Below are positions 11,241 to 22,560 of a DNA stretch of 64,000 bases, in pieces. The translations under genes and the position numbers were made by a program. Within the stretch, counting starts at the first letter, position 1; each line of letters starts with the position of its first letter. This DNA is from Oceanispirochaeta sp. (lineage in GTDB: Bacteria > Spirochaetota > Spirochaetia > DSM-2461). The stretch spans positions 1,056,001-1,120,000 of the forward strand of contig CAXXXD010000002.1 in assembly GCA_963663385.2 (NCBI GenBank). Direction: 5' to 3'. The notes beneath the pieces are model-generated. The model worked only from the letters and a program-made list of their open reading frames with translations. It ran no database searches and was not told the origin of the DNA.

Positions 11241-13029
11241 CAACTGTATTCCTCTCCGGGAGGATGTCCCCTCCGGGGATAAGTGGGACCTTTCGTCACT
11301 TTTCGTCAGCGAAGAAGCCTGGGAGGAGGGGCTGGAAACCTTTGAAAAAATGATACCTGAAATTGCCGGGTTCAAGGGTACCCTCGGCGAATCGGCGGAA
11401 CAGCTGAAAGCCTGTCTGGATTTTTTCAATGATCTGGAGATCCTTGAGGAGAGGCTGGGGTACTATGCCATGCTCCGCAAGGAGGAAAATGTCGGGGACA
11501 GCAGCGGTTCCGGCCGGATGGCCCGTTATATGAGCGTGGCAACCAGAAGCAGCGCGGAAGCCGGATTCCTGAAACCGGAGATCCAGAGCTTGAGCGGGGA
11601 ACAGCTGGACCGGTATCTGACGTCTCCTGTTCTTGAGGAATTCCGGATCTCGTTAAAGAAACTGATTCGTTACAAGCCTCATATCCTCTCAGAGAAAGAG
11701 GAGGTTCTTCTGGCGAAACAGTCCGAATTCGCCCAGACGGCCCGGAAGGCCTTTTCCGCTTTAACCAATGCGGATCTGGAATTCGGTTCTCTTCGATCGG
11801 GAGGAGAAGAAAAACCTCTTACCAACTCAACCTTCGGGGTCTTTCTGCTGGATCCGGACAGGGATGTTCGAAAAAAAGCGTTCTCACAGTTCTACAAACA
11901 GTTTGAAGGGCATAAAAACACCCTGGCTGAACTCTACTCCGGCAGTGTTTTAAAGGATATCTTCTCAGCCAGAATCAGAGGATTTGAAACAGCCCGGCAG
12001 TCCAGCCTGTTTCCCGATAATGTTCCCGAATCGGTTTATGATAATCTGGTGGAATCTGTCGGAGATAATCTGGAACCTCTTCACCGCTACTATGAACTGA
12101 GGCGAAAAGTCCTCTCTCTGGATAAGCTTCACCTCTACGATACAAAAGTGTCCCTTATTCCGGATGTTAAAGTTCGCCACAGTTATGATGATGCCGTGGG
12201 TAAAGTACTCGAGTCTCTGGGACCCCTGGGGGAAGAGTATGTATCCACACTGCAAAGCGGTCTGACCGGTGGCTGGGTAGACCGGTATGAGAATAAGGGA
12301 AAACGATCCGGCGCTTTCTCGGCGGGGTCCTACAAGGGCGATCCCTACATCCTGCTGAATTTCAAGGAAGACGATATCCGGGATGTTTTTACCCTTGCCC
12401 ATGAGGGAGGCCACTCCATGCACTCCTGGTACTCGGTGCGCAACAATCCTTTTCAGGACTATAACTACACCATATTTGAGGCGGAAGTGGCTTCTACCTT
12501 TAATGAGCAGCTGCTGGCCAGATACCTGCTGGAACAGACCGGGGACAGGGATATGCGTCTGTATCTGATCGGCAGGCAGGTGGATGACATCCTGGCTACC
12601 ATATACAGGCAGACCATGTTTGCAGAGTACGAACACACATGTCACTCCCTGGTTGAGGGGGGCGAGGCTCTTACCATTGAAGTATTGAGGAAGGAGTACC
12701 GGTCTCTGCTGGAGAAATACTTCGGTCCGGCCGTCGTGCTGGACGAAATGGCAGACCTGGAAGGTTTGAGAATACCCCATTTCTACAGCGCTTTCTATGT
12801 TTACAAATACGCTACGGGTCTTTCTGCCGCTATGGCTCTGTCCGAAATGGTTCTGGAGGGGGGGCAAAAGGAACAGGCTGATTATTTGAACTTTCTGAAG
12901 TCCGGGGGCTCCCGTTTCCCTCTGGACTCACTGAAGCTGGCAGGTGTGGATATGTCTTCTCCCGAACCGGTTAACCGTGCCCTGAAACGGTTTGCTTCCC
13001 TTGTGGAGGAGCTTGAAAGTTCTTTGTAG
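11230..13029 (+). CDS. pepF: Oligoendopeptidase F (M3B)
   Basis: KWDL, KRSGAFS, HEGGHSMH, AEVAST, HFY..FYVYKYA. Confidence 0.95.
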   Translation: MNNNNCIPLREDVPSGDKWDLSSLFVSEEAWEEGLETFEKMIPEIAGFKGTLGESAEQLKACLDFFNDLEILEERLGYYAMLRKEENVGDSSGSGRMARYMSVATRSSAEAGFLKPEIQSLSGEQLDRYLTSPVLEEFRISLKKLIRYKPHILSEKEEVLLAKQSEFAQTARKAFSALTNADLEFGSLRSGGEEKPLTNSTFGVFLLDPDRDVRKKAFSQFYKQFEGHKNTLAELYSGSVLKDIFSARIRGFETARQSSLFPDNVPESVYDNLVESVGDNLEPLHRYYELRRKVLSLDKLHLYDTKVSLIPDVKVRHSYDDAVGKVLESLGPLGEEYVSTLQSGLTGGWVDRYENKGKRSGAFSAGSYKGDPYILLNFKEDDIRDVFTLAHEGGHSMHSWYSVRNNPFQDYNYTIFEAEVASTFNEQLLARYLLEQTGDRDMRLYLIGRQVDDILATIYRQTMFAEYEHTCHSLVEGGEALTIEVLRKEYRSLLEKYFGPAVVLDEMADLEGLRIPHFYSAFYVYKYATGLSAAMALSEMVLEGGQKEQADYLNFLKSGGSRFPLDSLKLAGVDMSSPEPVNRALKRFASLVEELESSL

Positions 13030-13032
13030 GGA

Positions 13033-13089
13033 ACCCTCTCCCCAGTTCCCTCTCCCAGGGGGCGAGGGGAATCAAAGGGGTGAGGGTGA
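13033..13089. repeat. Family A-related (BoxC-like) palindrome
   Basis: CCCTCTCCCCAGTTCCCTCTCCCAGGGGGCGAGGGGAA...GGGGTGAGGGT between convergent genes. Confidence 0.7.
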
Positions 13090-13100
13090 CGGCAGGTGTT

Positions 13101-13769
13101 CTACTCCTGCCGGTACCAGTCCATTTTCTGGCCTATCCTGCCGGCCAGTTCTTCCATATCCTTGTCGGTATGGTACTCCATGCCTGCCCGGCTCATGGAA
13201 ATTCCTCCATCCTGATCCCGCAGCCGTATGGCGCTGTGGTGGGTTGCTTCAAGGGGAATCCTGATTCTTCCCCGGGGATCGCTTATATCAAGGGTGCCGT
13301 TACAGAGACAGAAGTAGGTTGTCCGGTTGTCTTCTTTTTTTATGAAAAAAGACGTTCCTCTTACACCTGCTATTACATTCCCGGATTCTATGTGAAAAAG
13401 ATCGTCTTCCTTTTTCAGGAGGGTTTTTATATTCCTGAGAACAGCCGCCGCAGTTCCTCTCTCTACGTTCACCATAGCTTCCGAGAAGGATATTCTCATA
13501 ATGGTATCATCGAAAATCCTGATGATATTGCTGCCCAGAAATGTAATTTCGCAGTATCCGTTCTCATCCGTCTGGAGAATCGATCCATCAGGCACTTTTG
13601 CCCCGACCAGTACCGGATTTCCATTGATAAGAACACTCCCTTCCAGTCCGATTACAGATCCCTGAACAGAGGAGGACTGGACATTGCCGCTATTTTTTGA
13701 AGGAGAACAGGAAAGTCCAAATATCAGTAAAAAAAACATCAAAAGATAAAAAAAACGCATTTTCTTCAT
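13101..13769 (-). CDS. FecR-domain lipoprotein
   Basis: Lipobox GLSC; AGVRGTSF motif typical of spirochaetal FecR-domain proteins. Confidence 0.75.
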   Translation of the reverse strand: MKKMRFFYLLMFFLLIFGLSCSPSKNSGNVQSSSVQGSVIGLEGSVLINGNPVLVGAKVPDGSILQTDENGYCEITFLGSNIIRIFDDTIMRISFSEAMVNVERGTAAAVLRNIKTLLKKEDDLFHIESGNVIAGVRGTSFFIKKEDNRTTYFCLCNGTLDISDPRGRIRIPLEATHHSAIRLRDQDGGISMSRAGMEYHTDKDMEELAGRIGQKMDWYRQE

Positions 13770-13869
13770 AATTCAGATCTCCCCATACCTCGAATTGTAA
13801 GATAAAAAGCTTTTATATGGAAAGGAAATAAGGGATTTCTTCATTAAAATGGTTTTTGTATAAAATAGT

Positions 13870-13899
13870 TTGACAACATGGAGTCATATTCGTTACCAT
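13870..13899 (+). promoter_or_regulatory. sigma70 promoter of the 13942 gene
   Basis: TTGACA-18 nt-TACCAT; predicted +1 near 13906-13907. Confidence 0.6.
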
Positions 13900-13941
13900 T
13901 TCTACTATTGAAACAAACTTAATAACATTGAGGAGAAATTA

Positions 13942-14919
13942 ATGAAGAAATTATTAGTTCTGCTAATTCTTATTTCTTTCACAGTCGGCGTATTTGCCGA
14001 CGATGCTCTGGTTATGCCCGAGGGTGTAATCCGCGCCTATTTCGTCGGATCATACGGGATGACCGACAGTGCATATGATTCTGACGGAGAAGAACAGGAT
14101 TCTGATACAGGAGAAACCAAATTCTTTAATCAGGGATATGCTGTGGAACTGGGTGTAACCGATTCCATTACAGCAGCCCTGCAGTGGGTTCCCGGGCATA
14201 ACCTCTATTCGGATGTCGAAAATGCTGAAGACGTTGAGCTTTCGGGAGCTTATGATCTGTTTGCGGGTGCCAAAATCCAGATCCTCGGAGATCATGGTTT
14301 TGTAAAGAACGATCAGTTCCGTTTTTCAATGGCTCCCGGTTTCAGAATCCCCCTGGATTCCTATGATGCGGTAGAGGAAGCTGAAAACTATTTGGCTGGA
14401 GATTCCTACAGAGCTTCAGGTGTGTCAAATGAGTCTCTCGGAATCGGTTCAAGGATTTACTTTGACTACATTGTAAATGAAAACTTTTTCCTGAACCTTT
14501 ACAGTGAAATTATCTATAATATTCCCGTTGATAAAACGTCTGCAGATCTTGGAGCTGATGCGATCGGGGCTGCTATGATGGGTACAGATCTTGATGAATT
14601 GGAGTATAAATACGGAACCGATATGGTTTTCGAATTTGAACCCCAGTACAGCTATTCTGTAACAGACAAGAGTTCTCTGAAATTTTACCTGCCCGTTAAC
14701 TATGCCATTACACAGGATGTTGAAGTGGAAGGGGAAAAAGTGGATGATTCCGGCAGCAAATATCTGCAGCTCCGACCCGGACTCGGTTACTTCTGCGGCG
14801 ATTTCAAGGTTCCCTTTGAAGCTTCCGTACAGTACGGTCTTCCCCTTATGGGTGAAAATACAGCAAAGATGCATACCATTGTTTTCAAGCTGAAAGTATA
14901 CGCCAGACTGTGGGAATAG
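13942..14919 (+). CDS. Putative outer-membrane beta-barrel channel
   Basis: Sec signal ending VFA, amphipathic beta strands, aromatic C-terminus, GAGGAG RBS. Confidence 0.7.
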   Translation: MKKLLVLLILISFTVGVFADDALVMPEGVIRAYFVGSYGMTDSAYDSDGEEQDSDTGETKFFNQGYAVELGVTDSITAALQWVPGHNLYSDVENAEDVELSGAYDLFAGAKIQILGDHGFVKNDQFRFSMAPGFRIPLDSYDAVEEAENYLAGDSYRASGVSNESLGIGSRIYFDYIVNENFFLNLYSEIIYNIPVDKTSADLGADAIGAAMMGTDLDELEYKYGTDMVFEFEPQYSYSVTDKSSLKFYLPVNYAITQDVEVEGEKVDDSGSKYLQLRPGLGYFCGDFKVPFEASVQYGLPLMGENTAKMHTIVFKLKVYARLWE

Positions 14920-14944
14920 AAATCTGATTTAATCTTTTGATTGA

Positions 14945-14995
14945 AGCCGTCCTTCCCCTCGACTTTGCTCGGGGATCTTGAGGACGGCTGTTTTA
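14945..14995 (+). terminator. Terminator hairpin with a family B repeat in its loop
   Basis: AGCCGTCCT...AGGACGGCT then GTTTT; loop contains CCTCGACTTTGCTCGG. Confidence 0.6.
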
Positions 14996-15065
14996 TTTAT
15001 AAATTGAATTTGTTTCTGGTTTCTGAACACATCGTGCCGAGCATAGCCGAGGTAAAGTCAGGGGA

Positions 15066-15704
15066 TCAGGCTCTGATGGCGGAAAGCAGAAGCGAGAACA
15101 TGGTTTTAATCAGGTCGTCATCATTGACGTTCATGCTGGCCTTTATCCAGCTCTTGCGGACATATATTTTCTGCATGGTCGCCTGAATCATTGTCAGAAT
15201 TGTAACTGCCATTTCCCGGGGATTACTGATTTTCCGGATGGATCCGTCATCAATTCCCATCTGTATGGTTTTTTCGATATCCATAGTCAGCGCATTCAGA
15301 ATCCCCAGGCATTTCCGGGCATCTTCGCTGGGGCTGTCCATGAAATTGATCTTCTGGTCCAGTAGCAGGGTAAAGACAAACTGATTAAAATGGTCTTTGT
15401 AGTATTCCAGAAAGGTGTTCTGTATCACTTCCAGCTTTTTCAGCCCTGTTGCATGTTTGGAGTCAAAAGACTCTCTGAACATCTCCTTCAGCTTTGCATA
15501 GGATTCCAGCATAATGATATAGGAAATCTCTTCCTTGCTTGTAAAGTAGTGATAGAGGGTTCGTCTGCTCAGTTCCGCCTGTTCCGCTATGTTCAGCATG
15601 GTTGTGTTTTCATACCCCTTGGACATGAACAGTTCCCTGGCTGCGGTCAGTATCTCACGGACCCTCTGGTCTTTTTCTCGTTGTTTGCGTTCTGCTATTC
15701 CCAT
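15066..15704 (-). CDS. TetR/AcrR family regulator
   Basis: N-terminal HTH: AARELFMSKGYENTTMLNIAEQAELSRRTLYHYFTSKEE. Confidence 0.95.
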   Translation of the reverse strand: MGIAERKQREKDQRVREILTAARELFMSKGYENTTMLNIAEQAELSRRTLYHYFTSKEEISYIIMLESYAKLKEMFRESFDSKHATGLKKLEVIQNTFLEYYKDHFNQFVFTLLLDQKINFMDSPSEDARKCLGILNALTMDIEKTIQMGIDDGSIRKISNPREMAVTILTMIQATMQKIYVRKSWIKASMNVNDDDLIKTMFSLLLSAIRA

Positions 15705-15767
15705 TTCCCTAGTTAATTCCGCTTATTGGTATTTGTCAAGGCTGATTACCGATCTGATCAGATGCAG

Positions 15768-15837
15768 AAAAAAAATGGCCGGATATTTCAAATTGAAACA
15801 AACTTAATAACATTAAGGAGAAATATCCAGCCGATAT
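15768..15837 (-). ncRNA. Candidate trans-acting antisense sRNA (~70 nt) against the 13942 mRNA leader
   Basis: 13-bp stem 15777-15789/15820-15832 plus U8 tail; 15792-15824 matches 13907-13939 at 32/33 nt; own promoter immediately upstream. Confidence 0.65.
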
Positions 15838-15843
15838 GCACTT

Positions 15844-15872
15844 ATGATACAGCAACTACACTCAGAGTGCAA
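15844..15872 (-). promoter_or_regulatory. sigma70 promoter with overlapping TetR-type operator
   Basis: Minus strand TTGCAC-17 nt-TATCAT; palindrome TACACT-CAG-AGTGCA at 15857-15871. Confidence 0.65.
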
Positions 15873-15888
15873 TTGCTTTTTTGATAAA

Positions 15889-17337
15889 TTAGAAATTGTA
15901 GGATACAGTGAATTCTACAAAATCATTTTCATCATACTGGCCGAAAAGGGTATCCTCGTCGCCCCCGAAAAAACGGGCTGCCATTCCCAGGGTGAAATCA
16001 TCAACCGGTGAGTATTCGATGGAAGGATAAATCCCATAATCAGAGTCTTCAAAATGATAGAATGTGATCAGTTCCGCTTCCAGTTTTTCGTGAAGGTATT
16101 TATCCGATACGGCGAAGATCAGAAGGTTCTCTGTGTATTCCTTATCTTCATCATACTCAATATCACCCAGCCCAATCTCATTTGAATTCAGAGTGAGGGT
16201 TCCCGCTTCCTGAATATTGATGTTCAGGTTACTTACAGGAATGTCTCTGTCAAATCCTGCCACCCACTTAATACTGTTGTTATGAACATCTGTCTTATTT
16301 CCGTCAAAGTCTTCGGTCAAATTGCAGGCAAATTCACCCTTCAGGTTAAATTCGGCCAATATACAGGCCGCTTCAACGCCGAAGGTCTGCATGGGGTCGT
16401 ATTCAAACCAGTAGTTAATCGTGTCCACACCATCAAAGGCGTAATTGAAACTGGGGAGTTTGTTGTAACCGTAGTAGTAGGTGAATCCGTAGTCCAGACC
16501 GCCGGCGGTTGACGTATAATGCATAGCTCCCTGACCATAATCAAATGTATTGATGTCGGATCCGGCAAGAGCCGTTATGCTGGGTGTTACCACAGCACCG
16601 GTCTGTGCGTAGATGGCGGCTGCCGTCTGGGACGCAATCGCCTGCAGTGTCGCGGGGAGCTCAACTTTGGTATTCAGGGGCTGCCAGATGCCCGCTTCTG
16701 CATAACTGTAGGGAGTCAGTGTGGGAACATAGGCCAGTTCCAGCATACCGGACATCCCCAGGGGAACATTAACCTTGAGCATCAGTTCGGGATCGATCAT
16801 CTCCATATAGTCGGGGATGAGGAATTCGCTCAGATTGACGCTGTTCAGAACATCTACCACATGGAACTCATCAGCTTTTCCCCAGACGACTTTCATATAT
16901 CCCGCTTCGAAGTTCATCTTCTCACCGAAATACTGTCCATAGGCTTCGTTGACAGTCACCACGGAATCCCGTTCGCTTCCAGTCATTTCGGGGGTGATAT
17001 CAACATCGGTAACGACTTTGAAATCACTTCCTTCATAGGTAAAACTGAGATTGGCTGCAATAGAGGTTTCCATCTGATCCAGACCGGCTTCTCTGTCGGC
17101 CATATCATCCCTTGCATCTTCAGAGGCAAAAGCTCTTACAGAAGTGGTTACTCCTCCGTTTACTTCAACGGCGGCAGTGTTCTCATCACCAAAGGCGGAA
17201 TCTCCAAAGGCAGAGTCGCCAAAGCCGAAGTCTTCTGATTCGGAGTCTTCGAACCCCGATGTGAAGAAGGAATCATCGGCCCGGAGACCGGTGCTCAGAA
17301 CCAGTGATGCTGTTAACAGTACCAGTATTTTTTTCAT
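15889..17337 (-). CDS. Outer-membrane beta-barrel partner of the MMPL module (DUF1302-like)
   Basis: Signal peptide, EAY...G...VVWGKAD motif, C-terminal FGQYDENDFVEFTVSYNF; conserved MMPL-LolA-like-barrel gene order. Confidence 0.75.
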   Translation of the reverse strand: MKKILVLLTASLVLSTGLRADDSFFTSGFEDSESEDFGFGDSAFGDSAFGDENTAAVEVNGGVTTSVRAFASEDARDDMADREAGLDQMETSIAANLSFTYEGSDFKVVTDVDITPEMTGSERDSVVTVNEAYGQYFGEKMNFEAGYMKVVWGKADEFHVVDVLNSVNLSEFLIPDYMEMIDPELMLKVNVPLGMSGMLELAYVPTLTPYSYAEAGIWQPLNTKVELPATLQAIASQTAAAIYAQTGAVVTPSITALAGSDINTFDYGQGAMHYTSTAGGLDYGFTYYYGYNKLPSFNYAFDGVDTINYWFEYDPMQTFGVEAACILAEFNLKGEFACNLTEDFDGNKTDVHNNSIKWVAGFDRDIPVSNLNINIQEAGTLTLNSNEIGLGDIEYDEDKEYTENLLIFAVSDKYLHEKLEAELITFYHFEDSDYGIYPSIEYSPVDDFTLGMAARFFGGDEDTLFGQYDENDFVEFTVSYNF

Positions 17338-17339
17338 TC

Positions 17340-18110
17340 CTATCTCCCTGTGTTCAGAAACTGGGTTGTAAACATATTGCTGTTAACAGGTTTATCGAAT
17401 TCTACATTCAGTACTTTCATCTCTGTAGCGTGGCCGTTCTGAACATTATCAATACGGGTCAGGATGGGAGTCCAGTGACCGTCAATGTTTTTAAGCTGTT
17501 TAACCGACATTACCTTGTAGAGATTCTCCTGCTTGTCGTACATCTCGATTTTAACGGGGGTCCAGGTTTCCTTGTCGAACCAGGTCAGACGGTAGGCATA
17601 CTGGGAATCGGCAGGATCCACGGCTTTGCCTTTTACTACGTAACAGTTCCATTCGGAAAATGATTCTTCCCGGATCAGTTCGTGTGTGTCCCGGTCAAGA
17701 TCACGGGTTTCCATATCGTCATAGGAGGCATCAGAACCCATAAAAGACTTGCTGCCGTCAGAAGTAGAGATCCGGCGGACCCTTTTCATGGCAGGCAGGT
17801 AAATCCATTTGTCATCGGCTCTGTCTTCATTCTGTACCTGCAGGAACCGTGTGTTTTTTACACTGGCGGGGCTTCTGAAAACCATTATGCTGCTGGCAAG
17901 GTCGTTCTCTTCCATACCCCACTGTTCGATCATTCTGGAGGAAACATTTCCTCCCTCTTCAATCAGGTCCATCTGCAGGGCCATATGGGTTGTATCAGGT
18001 TTGTCCCTGTTGTCATAGTTCCGGGCTACTTCAAGGCCGGTTATGGCAAATAGGGAAGGTGATACCAGCAGCAGGGCCAGTCCTGTTAAATTACTTATTG
18101 TCCTTTTCAT
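17340..18110 (-). CDS. LolA-like outer-membrane lipoprotein-sorting protein
   Basis: WIYLPAMKRVRRI...SFMGSD.SYDD motif. Confidence 0.88.
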   Translation of the reverse strand: MKRTISNLTGLALLLVSPSLFAITGLEVARNYDNRDKPDTTHMALQMDLIEEGGNVSSRMIEQWGMEENDLASSIMVFRSPASVKNTRFLQVQNEDRADDKWIYLPAMKRVRRISTSDGSKSFMGSDASYDDMETRDLDRDTHELIREESFSEWNCYVVKGKAVDPADSQYAYRLTWFDKETWTPVKIEMYDKQENLYKVMSVKQLKNIDGHWTPILTRIDNVQNGHATEMKVLNVEFDKPVNSNMFTTQFLNTGR

Positions 18111-18135
18111 AATAATCCTCCGGATTTATTTTTTA

Positions 18136-18323
18136 CCCTTTCCCTGCCCTCTCCCGGAAGGAGAGGGTTCAAGAAGAAGTAATATATGCTTTGTTTTTCT
18201 CCCCTCTCCCTCCGGGAGAGGGGCTGGGGGTGAGGGCCTCTGTTCAAGGCCCCTCTCAGTCTCCCCGAAGGGGAGATGCAATCTGTTGTCAGCTCCCCTC
18301 CTACGGAGGGGACGGGGGAGGTC
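18136..18323. repeat. Two tandem family A (BoxC-like) elements inside the MMPL operon
   Basis: CCCTCTCC-CGGAA-GGAGAGGG, CCCCTCTCCC-TCC-GGGAGAGGGG, and 18248-18323, whose first 35 nt are nearly identical to 45337-45371. Confidence 0.85.
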
Positions 18324-18324
18324 C

Positions 18325-21075
18325 TTACGCACTCTTCTTCCGTTTTCCCTCGCTGTCTTTTCCTCCCTTTCCGCTTGTATCCCTGCTGATGAATTTCGGT
18401 TTGAAAATATTCAGCAGGGCAGGCAGTACCGTCAGGGCTGCAATGGAAGATGTTCCCATGATGATTGCCACCAGGGCTCCGATAAAACGGAGTACAACAA
18501 ACTTTGAAAAGATGAGTACCAGAAATCCCAGACCTACAGAAACCGCATTTGTAATGATGGCCTTGCCGGACGACATAACAGTTTCTTTCGTTACTGTATC
18601 CAGGTTATCCGACTTGAGCCGTTCAATTTTATAGCGGCTGAGAAAGTGTATGGTGTAGTCTACGCCGACACCAATGGCAATTGAGGCGATAAGGGCTGTT
18701 ATCATATCCAGATTTATCCCTGTTAATCCCATAATTCCAAAGTTGATCAGGATGGCCAGGAAGAGGGGCACAATCCCGTAAAATCCTGCAAAAGGAGACC
18801 GGTAGGCAATGGATACAATCAGGAATACTGCAACAAGGGCTGTGAGAAGGCTTTTGATCTGGGATCCTGTAATCATATCGGTCAATGCTTTTACCAGTTC
18901 CGCAATTCCCGAGTTTTCAATGGTAATGTTATCGGGGAAATGGGCATCGGCATAACTGTTGATATCTTCCAGAATCTCGGCGCAGACTGCTGTATCGGAT
19001 ACTTTCAGCTGTACGAGCATTCTAACCTGTGTGGGTTCCAGAGAATCATCGGAGAACTTGTCCAGTGAGCCTGAGTAGAGAAGCAGGTACTGGGAGATCA
19101 GGTTTTTCAGTTCCTCATTGGAGGCGGCAGGATACTTGGAAAGATCCGTGGGGATTTCGTAATAGGCTTTTCCTCTGACATTAAAAGCTTTTTCAACTTC
19201 GCTGGTCAGATCCGCAATGGTAAAATTGCCGTCTCCATTTTCATTAACCACCTTTCTGGCCAGGTCGATAAGGGTGGCCCATGTCAGGTCATCTGTCATG
19301 GAAAGGGGCTCGAAGGTCACAGGCGAGGCTTCCGTCAGTTCTTCGCTGTCATCGCCGAAGAAGGAACCTGAGTCAGAATCATCATCACTGAAGAAGGATG
19401 AGTTCCCCTCGCTGTCATCGCTGAAAAAGGACCCTGAATCAGAGTTGTCATCGCCGAAGAAGGAACCGGCTTCTACACTTTCGTAGTCGTCATAGCTTCC
19501 AAAATCCTCAGAACCCTCTTCTACGGGAAAATTCATTACCTGATTCATCCTCTTGATGAAATCGGCATATGTCATGATTTTCCCGATATCTGGATGGGTT
19601 GTCAAAAGATGCTTTTTCAGGTTATCCATCTCATTCAGAACCAGGGGATCAATCACATCACCGGGATTTTCCCCTTTTACAACAATGTTGAATGTGTTGG
19701 TTCCGGCGAAATGATCAGAGATATAGTCGGCATTAACCCGTAGAGAGGAATCCTTGGGAAAGTAGTCGATCAGGGCGCTTTCGATATTCATCTGAGTCAG
19801 CCCGTAAGCGGAGATAAGTACGATAGCTATTGTAATAACTAGAATCCCCGTTCTATGGCTGGATAATCTGTTATAAACCGCTTCCATTCTTTTATGAGAG
19901 TGGTCTTCTCTTTTCTTTATCTTGGCCTCCAGAGCAGATTTATCCTTAAGGACTTCCCTGTCTTTATAGGAGATGATCATCAGAGCCGGAATAAAGGTAA
20001 GAGAAAGAACTAAAGCTATCACCGTACCGATTGTTGAAAAAAGACCGAATGTCTTGAGAGGAACAATGGGGCTGGTTATGATGGAGGAAAAACCGACAAT
20101 CGTCGTAAATCCGGCCAGCAGAACAGGTTCCAGAACCAGATTCACTGAGGAAATTACTATTTCCTTATGCTCCTGAACGGAAACCCTTTTTTTCTGATTG
20201 CGCATGTCCGTGTAGTAATGGGTCATTACATGGATACCGTACGCGCTGCCGATTGCAATAATCAGTACGGGCAGACAGGTTGATACAATACTGAAAGCCA
20301 CATCGAAAAGAGCCATGATTCCTACGGTCCAGATTGTCGTAATCATTACGGTTATCATGGGAAGCAGAGTTCCTCCCAGGCGATGGAAGGCGAAGTAGAG
20401 GCTTAACAGAAGTACAAGCAGTACCAGCGGGATAAGGGCTGTCAGGTCTGCTATCATGAAAATCTCAGCATCGTGGGAGATAACAGGATCTCCGGCAACA
20501 CGGATGTCCAGCCAGTCGTAGTTTACAGAATATTCGACAATCCCGTCATAGATGGCATTTTTTTCCGCATGATTGGCATCCTTGTTTACTACAACCAGAA
20601 TCTGAGTCGATTTAAAGTCTCTGGAATAAAGGCTGTTTTCATACATGTCCGGCCAATCCAGAAGGTTGGTTTTCAGCTGAGCCAGCTCTTCCTCTGTTCC
20701 TGTAAAATCGTCTCTGATAAGGGGTTCGACAATCATACCTTCCGATGAACCATCAGGAAAATCCGTATTCAGTATGGATGTAAGGTCATCAACTACCGGA
20801 TTGGCTTCCAGAATTTCAGAAATTTCCCGTATCGCCTGGATCGTTCTGTTGTTGAGAAAGGTTCCATCCTTTTCGGTGATGCAGATATCAAACATGATCT
20901 GACTTTCATACACATCGTCCAGTGCTTTCATCCTTATATAGGAATCATGGTCTTCGGGGAAAAACGCAAGGACATCATTATCCAATACAACTTCAGGGAT
21001 TTGAATCCCCATAAACACTGTAACAGCCAGTACGATTAAAATTATAATCCATGGCTTTTTTAAAATATTCTTCAC
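18325..21075 (-). CDS. MMPL/RND-superfamily transporter
   Basis: Two TM halves (IAIGSAYGIH; IGVGVDYTIH) with large periplasmic loops; GTG start with AGGAG RBS. Confidence 0.92.
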   Translation of the reverse strand: MKNILKKPWIIILIVLAVTVFMGIQIPEVVLDNDVLAFFPEDHDSYIRMKALDDVYESQIMFDICITEKDGTFLNNRTIQAIREISEILEANPVVDDLTSILNTDFPDGSSEGMIVEPLIRDDFTGTEEELAQLKTNLLDWPDMYENSLYSRDFKSTQILVVVNKDANHAEKNAIYDGIVEYSVNYDWLDIRVAGDPVISHDAEIFMIADLTALIPLVLLVLLLSLYFAFHRLGGTLLPMITVMITTIWTVGIMALFDVAFSIVSTCLPVLIIAIGSAYGIHVMTHYYTDMRNQKKRVSVQEHKEIVISSVNLVLEPVLLAGFTTIVGFSSIITSPIVPLKTFGLFSTIGTVIALVLSLTFIPALMIISYKDREVLKDKSALEAKIKKREDHSHKRMEAVYNRLSSHRTGILVITIAIVLISAYGLTQMNIESALIDYFPKDSSLRVNADYISDHFAGTNTFNIVVKGENPGDVIDPLVLNEMDNLKKHLLTTHPDIGKIMTYADFIKRMNQVMNFPVEEGSEDFGSYDDYESVEAGSFFGDDNSDSGSFFSDDSEGNSSFFSDDDSDSGSFFGDDSEELTEASPVTFEPLSMTDDLTWATLIDLARKVVNENGDGNFTIADLTSEVEKAFNVRGKAYYEIPTDLSKYPAASNEELKNLISQYLLLYSGSLDKFSDDSLEPTQVRMLVQLKVSDTAVCAEILEDINSYADAHFPDNITIENSGIAELVKALTDMITGSQIKSLLTALVAVFLIVSIAYRSPFAGFYGIVPLFLAILINFGIMGLTGINLDMITALIASIAIGVGVDYTIHFLSRYKIERLKSDNLDTVTKETVMSSGKAIITNAVSVGLGFLVLIFSKFVVLRFIGALVAIIMGTSSIAALTVLPALLNIFKPKFISRDTSGKGGKDSEGKRKKSA
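19348..19467 (-). repeat. In-frame 33-nt tandem repeat (4 x [GS]SFF[GS]DD) in MMPL
   Basis: Units at 19348, 19381, 19414, 19447. Confidence 0.85.
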
Positions 21076-21132
21076 AGAAACTCCTATAATTTTTTACTTG
21101 TCCGGCAGAGCGTGCACTCTTGATTAATAAAA

Positions 21133-21179
21133 TGCACACCCTGTGCAATTAATGTATAAAATAAAATCTAAAAGGTCAA
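21133..21179 (-). promoter_or_regulatory. MMPL operon promoter with TetR-type operator
   Basis: Minus strand TTGACC-17 nt-TACATT; palindrome TGCACA-CCC-TGTGCA at 21133-21147 over the predicted +1. Confidence 0.65.
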
Positions 21180-21285
21180 CTTTTTCAGGGACTTTTTATA
21201 ATAAAAAAGAAAGACGGAAGGTTGATGCATAAAATAAAAACACAGCCTTCCCGATATTTCTTCATTCTGATATTATCGAATTACT

Positions 21286-22560
21286 ATGCTGGATTTTAAA
21301 TTTATCAAAGACAACCTGGATGCCGTCCGGGAAAATATCAGAAACCGGAATGTTTCCGCCGATCCCGAAAAGGTTGCGGTACTGTACGATCAGAGGAATG
21401 CGGTTCTTCAGGAAATGGAAGATCTTCGCAGGCGGAGAAATGAAAATGCCGGAAAAATGAAGGGGAAGCTGGATCCCGAAATCCGTCAGGGGCTAATTGA
21501 AGAGGGTAAAGTCCTTAAAGAGAAGATTGCTTCAGTGGAAGAAAAGCTGTCTGTTCTGGAAGAGGATCTGAAACAGGCTGCCATGCTGATACCCAATATG
21601 GCCCATCCAGATGCTCCCATCGGTAAAGAGGACAAGGATAATCTGGAACTGCTCCGAAGTGGAGAAGTCCCCCGGTTTTCTTTTAAACCGAAGGACCATG
21701 TGGAGCTGTCCGAGACCCTGGATCTGGTGGATTTTGAAACAGCCGCACGTGTGTCCGGAGCCAAATTCTACTATCTGAAAAATGAAGCTGTTCTGCTTGA
21801 ACTGGCTTTAACCCGTTATGCACTGGATCTGCTCCGTCAGAAGGGGTTCACACTGACGATAACTCCGGATATTGCCCGTGAAGAGATTGCCGAAGGAATC
21901 GGTTTCAATCCCCGGGGGAGCGAATCTAATATCTATACCCTGGAAGGAACGGGTACCTGTCTGGTGGGAACGGCCGAGATAACCCTGGGAGGTTATCATG
22001 CAGGGCAGATGCTGGATCTCTCAAAGGGGCCTATCCTGATGGCAGGAGTATCCCACTGTTTCAGAAGAGAGGCCGGTGCGGCCGGTCAGTACTCCAAAGG
22101 TTTATACCGGGTGCATCAGTTTACCAAAATCGAGATGTTCGCCTACTGTAAAGAGGAAGAATCTGATGATCTGCTGATGAAACTGAGAAGCATTGAAGAG
22201 GAGATTTTCAGCGGTCTGGATATACCATTCCGTGTGGTCGATACCTGTACCGGAGACCTTGGCGGCCCCGCCTACAGAAAGTTCGACCTGGAAGCCTGGA
22301 TGCCCGGACGGGGAGATGAAGGGGACTGGGGGGAAGTAACCAGTACCTCAAACTGTACGGATTATCAGGCCAGACGCCTTGGTATCCGCTATAAAGGGGA
22401 GGACGGGAAAAACCGTTACGCCCATACCCTGAACGGAACGGCCATTGCCATATCCCGTGCCATCATTGCCATTATTGAGAATTTTCAACAGGAAGACGGA
22501 TCTATCCGTATTCCCGAAAAACTGGTTCCCTATATGGGAATGTCAGAAATCAGACGCTGA
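21286..22560 (+). CDS. serS: Serine--tRNA ligase
   Basis: MLD N-terminus, GTAE, CFRREAG, RVHQF, TLNGT. Confidence 0.97.
   Translation: MLDFKFIKDNLDAVRENIRNRNVSADPEKVAVLYDQRNAVLQEMEDLRRRRNENAGKMKGKLDPEIRQGLIEEGKVLKEKIASVEEKLSVLEEDLKQAAMLIPNMAHPDAPIGKEDKDNLELLRSGEVPRFSFKPKDHVELSETLDLVDFETAARVSGAKFYYLKNEAVLLELALTRYALDLLRQKGFTLTITPDIAREEIAEGIGFNPRGSESNIYTLEGTGTCLVGTAEITLGGYHAGQMLDLSKGPILMAGVSHCFRREAGAAGQYSKGLYRVHQFTKIEMFAYCKEEESDDLLMKLRSIEEEIFSGLDIPFRVVDTCTGDLGGPAYRKFDLEAWMPGRGDEGDWGEVTSTSNCTDYQARRLGIRYKGEDGKNRYAHTLNGTAIAISRAIIAIIENFQQEDGSIRIPEKLVPYMGMSEIRR

Follow-up and report, generated by a model that had tools for sequence, protein, structure and literature searches.

Positions 13870 to 21179 of a 64-kb window from Oceanispirochaeta sp. 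(the window being the whole stretch of DNA analyzed, with coordinates counted from its first letter) carry an outer membrane (OM) channel gene on the plus strand and, on the minus strand, a gene for a TetR-family regulator and an export operon built around an MMPL pump. Between tetR and the operon lies a short minus-strand element (15768-15837) that is predicted to encode a small RNA (sRNA) of ~70 nt, antisense to the leader of the channel gene. An earlier note on this DNA had proposed that the TetR protein represses both the operon and the sRNA, so that a ligand would switch the exporter on and silence the channel. Comparison of the host genome (5.31 Mb, designated G000) with its relatives supports that overall reading, through the conservation of the element, the way its loop tracks the channel leader, its independence from the operon and a palindrome shared by the sRNA and MMPL promoters.

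The channel gene and a displaced copy of its leader

The putative target gene (13942-14919, plus strand) encodes a protein of 325 aa with a signal peptide, a beta-barrel of the COG4313/Phenol_MetA_deg type. It matches Pfam PF13557 (Phenol_MetA_deg) at 29.3 bits against a cut-off of 22, and its AlphaFold2 (AF2) model is nearly all beta-strand (predicted local distance difference test, pLDDT, 84.7). The best PDB match of the model is 4RL8, a COG4313 channel (E = 1e-12; template modeling, TM, scores of 0.67/0.79), which is Pput2725 of Pseudomonas putida F1 and belongs to the same family, although the target shares only 14% sequence identity with it; according to the available part of the source, this channel family is implicated in the uptake of hydrophobic molecules (PMC4493636). 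A consensus scan places the promoter of the gene at 13870-13899 on the plus strand (TTGACA-18-TACCAT, 10/12 positions), and TTGAC[A/C] and TA[A/C][C/T]AT are retained upstream of the channel gene in five orthologous loci.

The segments 13907-13939 and 15792-15824 are identical at 32 of 33 nt, and the claim that the second copies the leader of the 13942 gene was borne out, both copies having been located and found to be unique in the genome. Allowing up to three mismatches, the 33-nt pattern occurs twice in the window (0 occurrences in 100 dinucleotide shuffles), and a search of the whole 5.31-Mb genome returned the same two copies only, with no occurrence of the reversed control pattern. The first copy runs from 7 nt past the -10 hexamer to 2 nt short of the 13942 ATG, and given these borders it represents the whole 5′ untranslated region (5′UTR) of the channel mRNA (13907-13939, plus strand), from the predicted +1 through the Shine-Dalgarno sequence (GGAG, 13931-13934). 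The second copy is located between two minus-strand genes, with the final gene of the MMPL operon (stop codon at 15889) on one side and tetR (start codon at 15704) on the other.

The sole difference between the copies, G13930 versus A15815, becomes a G·U pair when the minus strand of the second copy pairs with the leader, as had been noted earlier. The anti-leader segment of the predicted sRNA (15792-15824, minus strand) is complementary to 13907-13939 through 32 Watson-Crick pairs and this one G·U, and includes an anti-Shine-Dalgarno CUCCUU. Such complementarity to the ribosome-binding region of the target (33 nt, with the Shine-Dalgarno covered) is well above chance. RNAduplex gives -46.4 kcal/mol for the sRNA and leader of G000, compared with a mean of -14.8 and a minimum of -33.7 for shuffles, and the genome offers the predicted RNA no long antisense match besides the leader (the runner-up is 18 nt long with one mismatch, E = 0.9).

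Within the element, the second copy occupies the loop and the final 5 nt of the 5′ stem arm of a long hairpin (15777-15832, minus strand; arms 15777-15789 and 15820-15832). The stem closes the loop and abuts a U-tract, as the A8 at 15768-15775 reads U8 on the minus strand. The predicted RNA (15768-15837, minus strand) would accordingly be made up of a 5-nt 5′ tail, the 13-bp stem, a 30-nt loop containing an inner 6-bp hairpin, and the U8 tail. The inner hairpin (CUUAAU-GUU-AUUAAG, 15803-15817, minus strand) has six pairs and a GUU loop.

Gene order, promoters and a shared putative operator motif

A blastn search of 15700-15900 against 41 genomes gave matches in five including G000, all of the same genus. 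The matches were restricted to the element (query positions 69-174 at most), and the element is ~80% conserved while its flanks are unalignable. The five Spirochaetaceae genomes, G000 and the relatives designated G001, G002, G007 and G010, represent three lineages. A covariance model built, like the structure alignment described below, from six sequences (the five elements and one paralogue in G000) was run against 38 genomes of the family and gave strong matches in the same five (E = 1e-17 to 1e-19), with the paralogue at 1e-14. Weak matches of this model (E = 0.002-0.01), in three genomes of a neighboring genus and at another position in G002, were rejected as ordinary short terminators. Pattern scans with the RNA core were likewise unproductive: the four loci from a genome collection were two known relatives (Spirochaetaceae metagenome-assembled genomes) and two chance matches in Bacteroidota coding sequences, both loci from a metagenome collection were without the hairpin, and the gain in lineages from the two scans was nil. 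An Rfam scan of 13000-22000 at E ≤ 1 found nothing at the element and only two unrelated sub-threshold matches elsewhere.

The element co-occurs with its putative target. The channel gene is present in all five element-bearing genomes and, with the G000 channel as query, in none of six other members of the genus, one of which (G008) retains a homolog of the 482-aa protein of the export operon. In the class as a whole, channel homologs were found in 41 of 401 genomes sampled. No second leader copy was detected at the 19 usable channel loci outside the five genomes (scores of 18-26 versus 53-63), the search covering ~1.5 kb of flank at each, such that a more distant copy would be missed. This count excludes L047 (N's), L058 (too little upstream sequence), L062, L064, L065 and L066 (partial matches) and matches without loci.

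In all five genomes the element adjoins the OM channel, TetR and MMPL genes, in varying order. G000 and G010 have the channel (plus), tetR (minus), the element (minus) and the export operon (minus), the G010 contig ending inside the first open reading frame (ORF) after the element. In G001 and G002 the order is channel (plus), element (minus) and tetR (minus), divergent from the export operon (plus), and in G007 it is export operon (plus), channel (plus), tetR (minus), element (minus) and a FecR-like gene (minus).

A putative sRNA promoter (15844-15872, minus strand) comprises the -35 TTGCAC (15872-15867), a spacer of 17 nt and the -10 TATCAT (15849-15844). These hexamers, to which the earlier note had drawn attention, are indeed present, and TTGCAC is invariant at five of five sRNA promoters, with TAnnAT exactly 17 nt downstream in four. 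The exception is G010, with TATAGA at 16 nt plus a stronger upstream TTGACT-17-TACTAT abutting the operator described below. The retention of an own -35 and -10 in three gene orders argues against reading the element as just the 3′ end of the MMPL operon. This bears on an alternative in which the antisense function is the same and the RNA has no promoter of its own, being a processed 3′ end or 3′UTR of the transcript from upstream (in G000 that of the MMPL operon), with the hairpin primarily an operon terminator. In G000 the element does start 16 nt past the last operon stop and on the same strand, a minus-strand ORF cut by the contig end lies there in G010, and an RNA formed in this way would still be coupled to MMPL expression. 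The consensus scan, moreover, calls no sRNA promoter, a missing call explained by TTGCAC agreeing with TTGACA at just three of six positions. However, the upstream gene is tetR in G001 and G002 and a FecR-like gene in G007, and TTGCAC-17-TAnnAT and the operator are kept between the upstream gene and the hairpin in five genomes (with a variant -10 in G010), whereas a plain 3′UTR needs none of this. We regard this explanation as unlikely, although it is the strongest of the alternatives.

A putative TetR operator, ATTGCAC-N5-GTGTA (15857-15873, minus strand), overlaps the sRNA -35, and a third half-site, AGTGCA (15837-15842, minus strand), coincides with the predicted +1, after the -10 and ahead of the stem. 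An [A/G]TG[C/T]A pentamer is found 15-17 nt past the operator at five of five sRNA promoters and at three of four MMPL promoters (4 nt past in G007). The MMPL promoter (21133-21179, minus strand) consists of TTGACC (21179-21174), 17 nt and TACATT (21156-21151), followed by the operator ATTGCAC-N5-GTGCA (21149-21133). All four MMPL promoters seen have the form TTGAC[C/G/T]-17-TA[A/C]ATT with the operator motif immediately after, covering -10/+1. Hence, the similar palindromes that had been described at the sRNA and MMPL promoters are both present and are shared in every genome where both promoters are visible; the overlap with the sRNA -35 stands, and the MMPL site is corrected to the -10 and +1 of TTGACC-17-TACATT.

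The motif is scarce. In G000, ATTGCAC-N5-GYGYA occurs only at 15857-15873 and 21133-21149. The perfect TGCAC-N5-GTGCA (21133-21147) has two occurrences in the whole genome, the other one (G000:C2:1045577) lying ~10 kb before the window and missing the AT that flanks the palindrome in the operator motif. In the ~23 Mb of the five genomes, 11 distinct sites of ATTGCAC-N5-GYGYA were counted (five sRNA promoters, four MMPL promoters and two others; reversed control, 0), a tally that is partly circular, as the motif was derived from the same sites, so that independent information comes only from the scarcity of sites elsewhere. The two other sites, G002:C1:287910 and G002:C1:2381583, are identical in sequence and could be further targets of TetR or else a repeated element.

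The TetR-family regulator (212 aa; 15066-15704, minus strand; PF00440, E = 1.3e-17) has orthologs at all five loci that are 46%-61% identical overall, with an invariant helix-turn-helix recognition region. Its gene appears to be leaderless and to have a separate promoter of its own: a putative TTGACA-17-TTAACT (15711-15739, minus strand) ends 6 nt before the ATG, a TTGACA-17/18-T[T/A]A.. promoter likewise has its hexamer 6 nt before the tetR ATG in all five genomes (15705-15739; L016-L019), and G010 is without a Shine-Dalgarno there. From the same operator at both promoters, the gene linkage and the invariant recognition region, we infer that the adjacent TetR represses both the sRNA and the MMPL promoters.

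It is also conceivable that the sRNA is real and repressive while a factor other than the adjacent TetR controls both promoters, or that the motif reflects promoter architecture. TTGCAC doubles as a -35, the motif was defined from the very sites at issue, and the link between TetR and the operator is drawn from sequence. Set against this, the motif is an inverted repeat of 15-17 bp, as is typical of TetR operators, tetR is linked to both promoters in five of five cases, and its recognition region does not vary. The motif is not one fixed promoter element either, given that it sits at the -35 in the sRNA promoter and at -10/+1 in the MMPL promoter. In addition, the divergent tetR-MMPL regions of G002 (L016 11088-11102) and G001 (L017 10932-10946) contain a second palindrome, TGCAC-N5-GTGTA, which suggests two operators there. 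Control by another factor consequently seems to us quite unlikely.

Fold, covariation and leader matching of the element

On the minus strand, the 13-position stem contains one U·G, where the plus strand has a C·A mismatch. The minus-strand fold has a minimum free energy of -20.2 kcal/mol (z = -5.35, with 0 of 200 shuffles as good), compared with -16.6 for the complement strand, and in each of the five elements tested the strand proposed as RNA has a fold 3.6-7.2 kcal/mol more favorable than that of the opposite strand. In the six-sequence alignment, 98.2% of 114 cells pair, versus 33%-52% when partners are slid by 1-3 columns; four pairs show changes on both sides, and none of 500 shuffles attains the covariation score. 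The long stem alone accounts for 13 pairs, three of them changed on both sides and four on one side, and all seven one-sided changes of the alignment give G·U or U·G pairs in the minus-strand RNA, where the other strand would have A·C mismatches. These strand-only wobbles, together with the better fold, point to an RNA of the minus strand.

The 13-bp stem followed by U8 that the earlier note described is upheld by reading, fold and covariation, and its suggestion to compare both copies in relatives by BLASTN and covariation led to a favorable outcome (five genomes, three lineages, stem covariation and strand-specific wobbles). The kissing hairpins it envisaged in both RNAs fared less evenly. 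The sRNA hairpin is well kept and has one compensatory pair (pair 27-33 of the inner hairpin is A-U in three sequences and U-A in three), whereas the leader side is only loosely kept. Two small ORFs were considered and rejected: one in the plus-strand copy (Shine-Dalgarno-13 nt-ATG CAC TTA TGA) is not conserved, with no ATG there in G010, and a 26-codon ORF from the loop AUG is without a Shine-Dalgarno and absent where the loop reads UUAUUG.

In five of five genomes, leader and element are similar from a point 1-7 nt past the -10 hexamer to one 2-7 nt short of the ATG, and the similarity is thus bounded by RNA landmarks, with borders at the predicted +1 and the Shine-Dalgarno throughout. Own-lineage pairs reach local alignment scores of 53-63, compared with 28-46 for foreign pairs. 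Duplexes follow the same pattern, with own pairs at -43.4 to -47.3 kcal/mol, foreign pairs mostly at -23 to -37 and shuffled sRNAs at means of -14 to -18; the net gain of own duplexes after the unfolding cost is -18 to -23 kcal/mol. At the 17 leader-variable columns, agreement is 57/85 within genomes and 110/272 across lineages, and the true pairing is the best of six lineage permutations, a test that can reach 1 in 6 at best. The Shine-Dalgarno block is invariant, and the partner of the leader 5′ third is the 3′ half of the loop, which is unstructured. Since the channel proteins are just 43%-48% identical between lineages, neutral drift of two copies would have erased the match. The view that the loop tracks the leader of its own genome is supported by these comparisons.

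The same data speak to the suggestion that the hairpin is an intrinsic terminator only, its leader-like loop being a passive relic of a small duplication. The GC-rich 13-bp stem with its U-run does look like a terminator. Among the public runs compared as contigs (X6, X7, X8 and X9, four of twelve), the metatranscriptome X9 has contigs covering only 14490-14852, inside the channel gene, and with its coverage so confined gives nothing on the sRNA. A relic, however, would not track lineage-specific leader changes, nor would it hold borders at the +1 and the Shine-Dalgarno in five genomes with such diverged channels, stay conserved beside unalignable flanks, or occur only with the target gene. 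We consider a mere relic improbable. That both copies are DNA or plus-strand RNA sites for one protein, e.g., a dimeric regulator of CTTAAT-N3-ATTAAG, is more improbable still, for although the inner hairpin is also a DNA palindrome and the A-U to U-A swap would fit a symmetric DNA site just as well, the leaders of G010, G002, G001 and G007 preserve the palindrome poorly, the co-varying columns fall outside it, in the leader 5′ third, and the stem with minus-strand-only wobbles, the U-tract and the promoter are left unexplained.

G000 also contains a diverged paralogue of the sRNA element outside the window (G000:C2:884429-884495; L020 9430-9496, plus strand), seen in this genome alone among the 38 of the family and flanked by thiamine-pathway and pabB-like genes. 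Its stem, of 15 bp, shows compensatory changes and G·U wobbles of its own and is followed by a U5 tail. Its loop matches the main anti-leader at 28/30 and the leader at 27/30 positions, and its duplex with the 13942 leader is calculated at -38.2 kcal/mol. A further sRNA-like segment, 23 nt long and 78% complementary to 15805-15827, lies just upstream of serS (21253-21275, plus strand), probably by chance.

A proposed exporter-channel circuit and its relation to known systems

The export operon (15889-21075, minus strand) has three genes, for an MMPL/HAE3 resistance-nodulation-division (RND) pump, a LolA-like periplasmic protein and a DUF1302-like protein. The product of the pump gene (18325-21075, minus strand) matches Pfam MMPL at 8.2e-37, over the cut-off, and its top NCBIfam match is TIGR00921 HAE3 at 263.5 bits, below the cut-off of 351.9. 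The periplasmic protein (17340-18110, minus strand) is assigned to LolA_like (1.5e-64) and DUF1329 (6.4e-17). The 482-aa product of the remaining gene (15889-17337, minus strand) has no Pfam or NCBIfam match; its language-model atlas neighbors are of DUF1302 type (score 0.98, with 10%-29% of members in those clusters carrying DUF1302), and its AF2 model, from a 4-sequence alignment, is unusable (pLDDT 38.7). The operon had been described in the earlier note as MMPL/LolA-like/barrel, of which the first two parts are confirmed by Pfam, while the "barrel" is without a Pfam match and DUF1302-like by language-model features. According to the available part of its description, AmeABCD of Castellaniella defragrans, which the operon resembles, is an HAE3-type RND exporter of hydrophobic monoterpenes in which an HAE3/MMPL-type pump, a LolA-superfamily (DUF1329) periplasmic protein and a DUF1302 OM protein are encoded together, with four genes there and three here, where the OM component is DUF1302-like by atlas neighbors alone (PMC6394551). 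That part of the description mentions no connection of AmeABCD to an sRNA or a TetR regulator.

Two kinds of repeats in and around the operon were also recorded. The MMPL coding sequence (minus strand) contains a 56-nt direct repeat at 19343-19464, whose two copies are 84% alike and lie 66 nt apart, which suggests that an acidic, serine-rich insert has been duplicated in a periplasmic loop of the pump. GC-rich inverted repeats (CCCTCTCCC...GGGAGAGGG) at 13034-13070, after an M3 peptidase gene, and at 18139-18236, between the LolA-like and MMPL genes, correspond to the sub-threshold Rfam matches Antizyme_FSE (E = 0.09) and whalefall-1 (E = 0.036), and may be repetitive extragenic palindromic (REP)-like elements or terminators.

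In the circuit that we propose, TetR would hold both promoters off, and a ligand, probably hydrophobic, would free the exporter operon and the sRNA together. Transcription of the sRNA would start at TTGCAC-17-TATCAT and end at the 13-bp hairpin and U8. The free 5′ end of the channel mRNA would probably be paired first, by the 3′ half of the loop, which is unstructured, and pairing would then spread across the Shine-Dalgarno, blocking ribosome binding. The resulting duplex of ~33 bp would be a likely substrate of RNase III, which is encoded in G000. A search for Hfq (PF17209) returned 0 matches in G000 (98% complete) and was positive in five of 14 control genomes, a result consistent with the long complementarity. 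The outcome would be that the exporter is on and the hydrophobic-uptake channel off; as one ligand would raise the exporter and, through the RNA, lower the channel, the sRNA would invert the sign of TetR control.

We judge it probable that the full circuit exists as described, i.e., that a ~70-nt minus-strand RNA (15837-15768) is controlled by TetR together with the exporter and silences the 13942 channel. Greater confidence, on comparative grounds, attaches to a real and conserved RNA aimed at the 13942 leader, and we infer its transcription, the binding of TetR, and the direction and size of the effect on 13942 translation from the sequence. A more specific formulation is put forward tentatively, as a possibility that may well fail: the RNA would be the sign inverter of a TetR/HAE3 cassette, a 5′UTR copied into a terminator loop on the opposite transcription strand, co-evolved genus-wide and Hfq-free, pairing from the first nucleotides of the mRNA onward, with the operator-less paralogue feeding another signal to the same target.

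Several observations weigh against the proposed circuit, in addition to the uncalled sRNA promoter, the circularity of the operator motif, the confined X9 coverage and the ceiling of the permutation test given above. The lineages are few, the five genomes falling into three lineages of kin that are not independent. No terminator is called at the hairpin by the consensus scan, whose loop limit of 8 is exceeded by the 30-nt loop. The U-tract is weak in some relatives (UUU in G002), and a relative of ~90% identity with the whole locus present (run X8) has four fewer A's of the eight at 15773, so that the U-tract of its RNA would be shorter. Given the stronger upstream promoter in G010, the 5′ end and length of the sRNA may differ in that genome. 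The foreign duplex of the G007 sRNA with the G010 leader, at -42.2 kcal/mol, is on a par with own pairs, and the contrast in the joint alignment is modest (own identity 29-35 of 38-39, cross-lineage 25-32 of 39). Mirrored changes are concentrated in ~7 columns of the leader 5′ third, and the middle of the leader differs from the element by substitutions and one to two indels. Finally, neither a TetR operator nor a called promoter was found at the G000 paralogue.

MicF and ompF of enterobacteria offer the closest functional parallel. MicF is a short RNA that pairs with the 5′UTR of an OM channel and is switched on together with RND efflux, and it has been proposed to derive from the 5′ region of its target. 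As with MicF, the RNA here is encoded apart from its target and would pair over the 5′UTR including the Shine-Dalgarno, influx going down as efflux goes up. It is not a member of the MicF family, however, with no sequence or structure homology (Rfam, nothing at the element). A putative TetR repressor and shared operator take the place of AraC-type activators, the 33-nt pairing is near-perfect and starts at the mRNA 5′ end, no Hfq gene was found, and the RNA and its target share a cassette, 1.9 kb apart. The channel and pump families also differ, and the host is a free-living spirochaete. Hence, the proposed circuit is MicF-type logic in an Hfq-less, TetR-linked form.

The plasmid antisense RNAs of the CopA/CopT and RNAI/RNAII systems, which start pairing by loop-loop contacts, resemble the predicted RNA in their long near-perfect complementarity, a stem-loop presenting the pairing sequence, Hfq independence and probable RNase III cleavage. 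Those RNAs act in cis, from the opposite strand of the target, whereas the antisense sequence here is a displaced copy of the leader, which means that the RNA would act in trans and that the two copies must co-evolve. VrrA, which acts on ompA in Vibrio cholerae, differs in being 140 nt long and sigma-E dependent and, in the available part of the source, is without a link to a TetR/exporter cassette (PMC2628432). A literature search, with subscription journals outside its scope, found no sRNA under TetR repression that acts to silence an OM channel next to an MMPL/HAE3 module, in agreement with the earlier note, to whose author no such circuit was known in spirochaetes or MMPL modules.

If true, the circuit would clearly exemplify regulation by an sRNA in free-living Spirochaetaceae; the work on spirochaete sRNAs that was found concerns Borrelia and Leptospira, as far as the available parts of those sources extend. 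The logic of raising efflux while lowering influx would then be older and wider than thought, having been reinvented with a TetR regulator, an HAE3/MMPL exporter and a COG4313 channel, and with no Hfq. An sRNA that is a displaced copy of its target's leader, with both changing together, would amount to a natural experiment in sRNA-target co-evolution, and the cassette would represent a compact, ligand-switchable repressor-plus-inverter module. The linkage of a COG4313 channel to an AmeABCD-like exporter would also give a functional hint for two poorly understood protein families.

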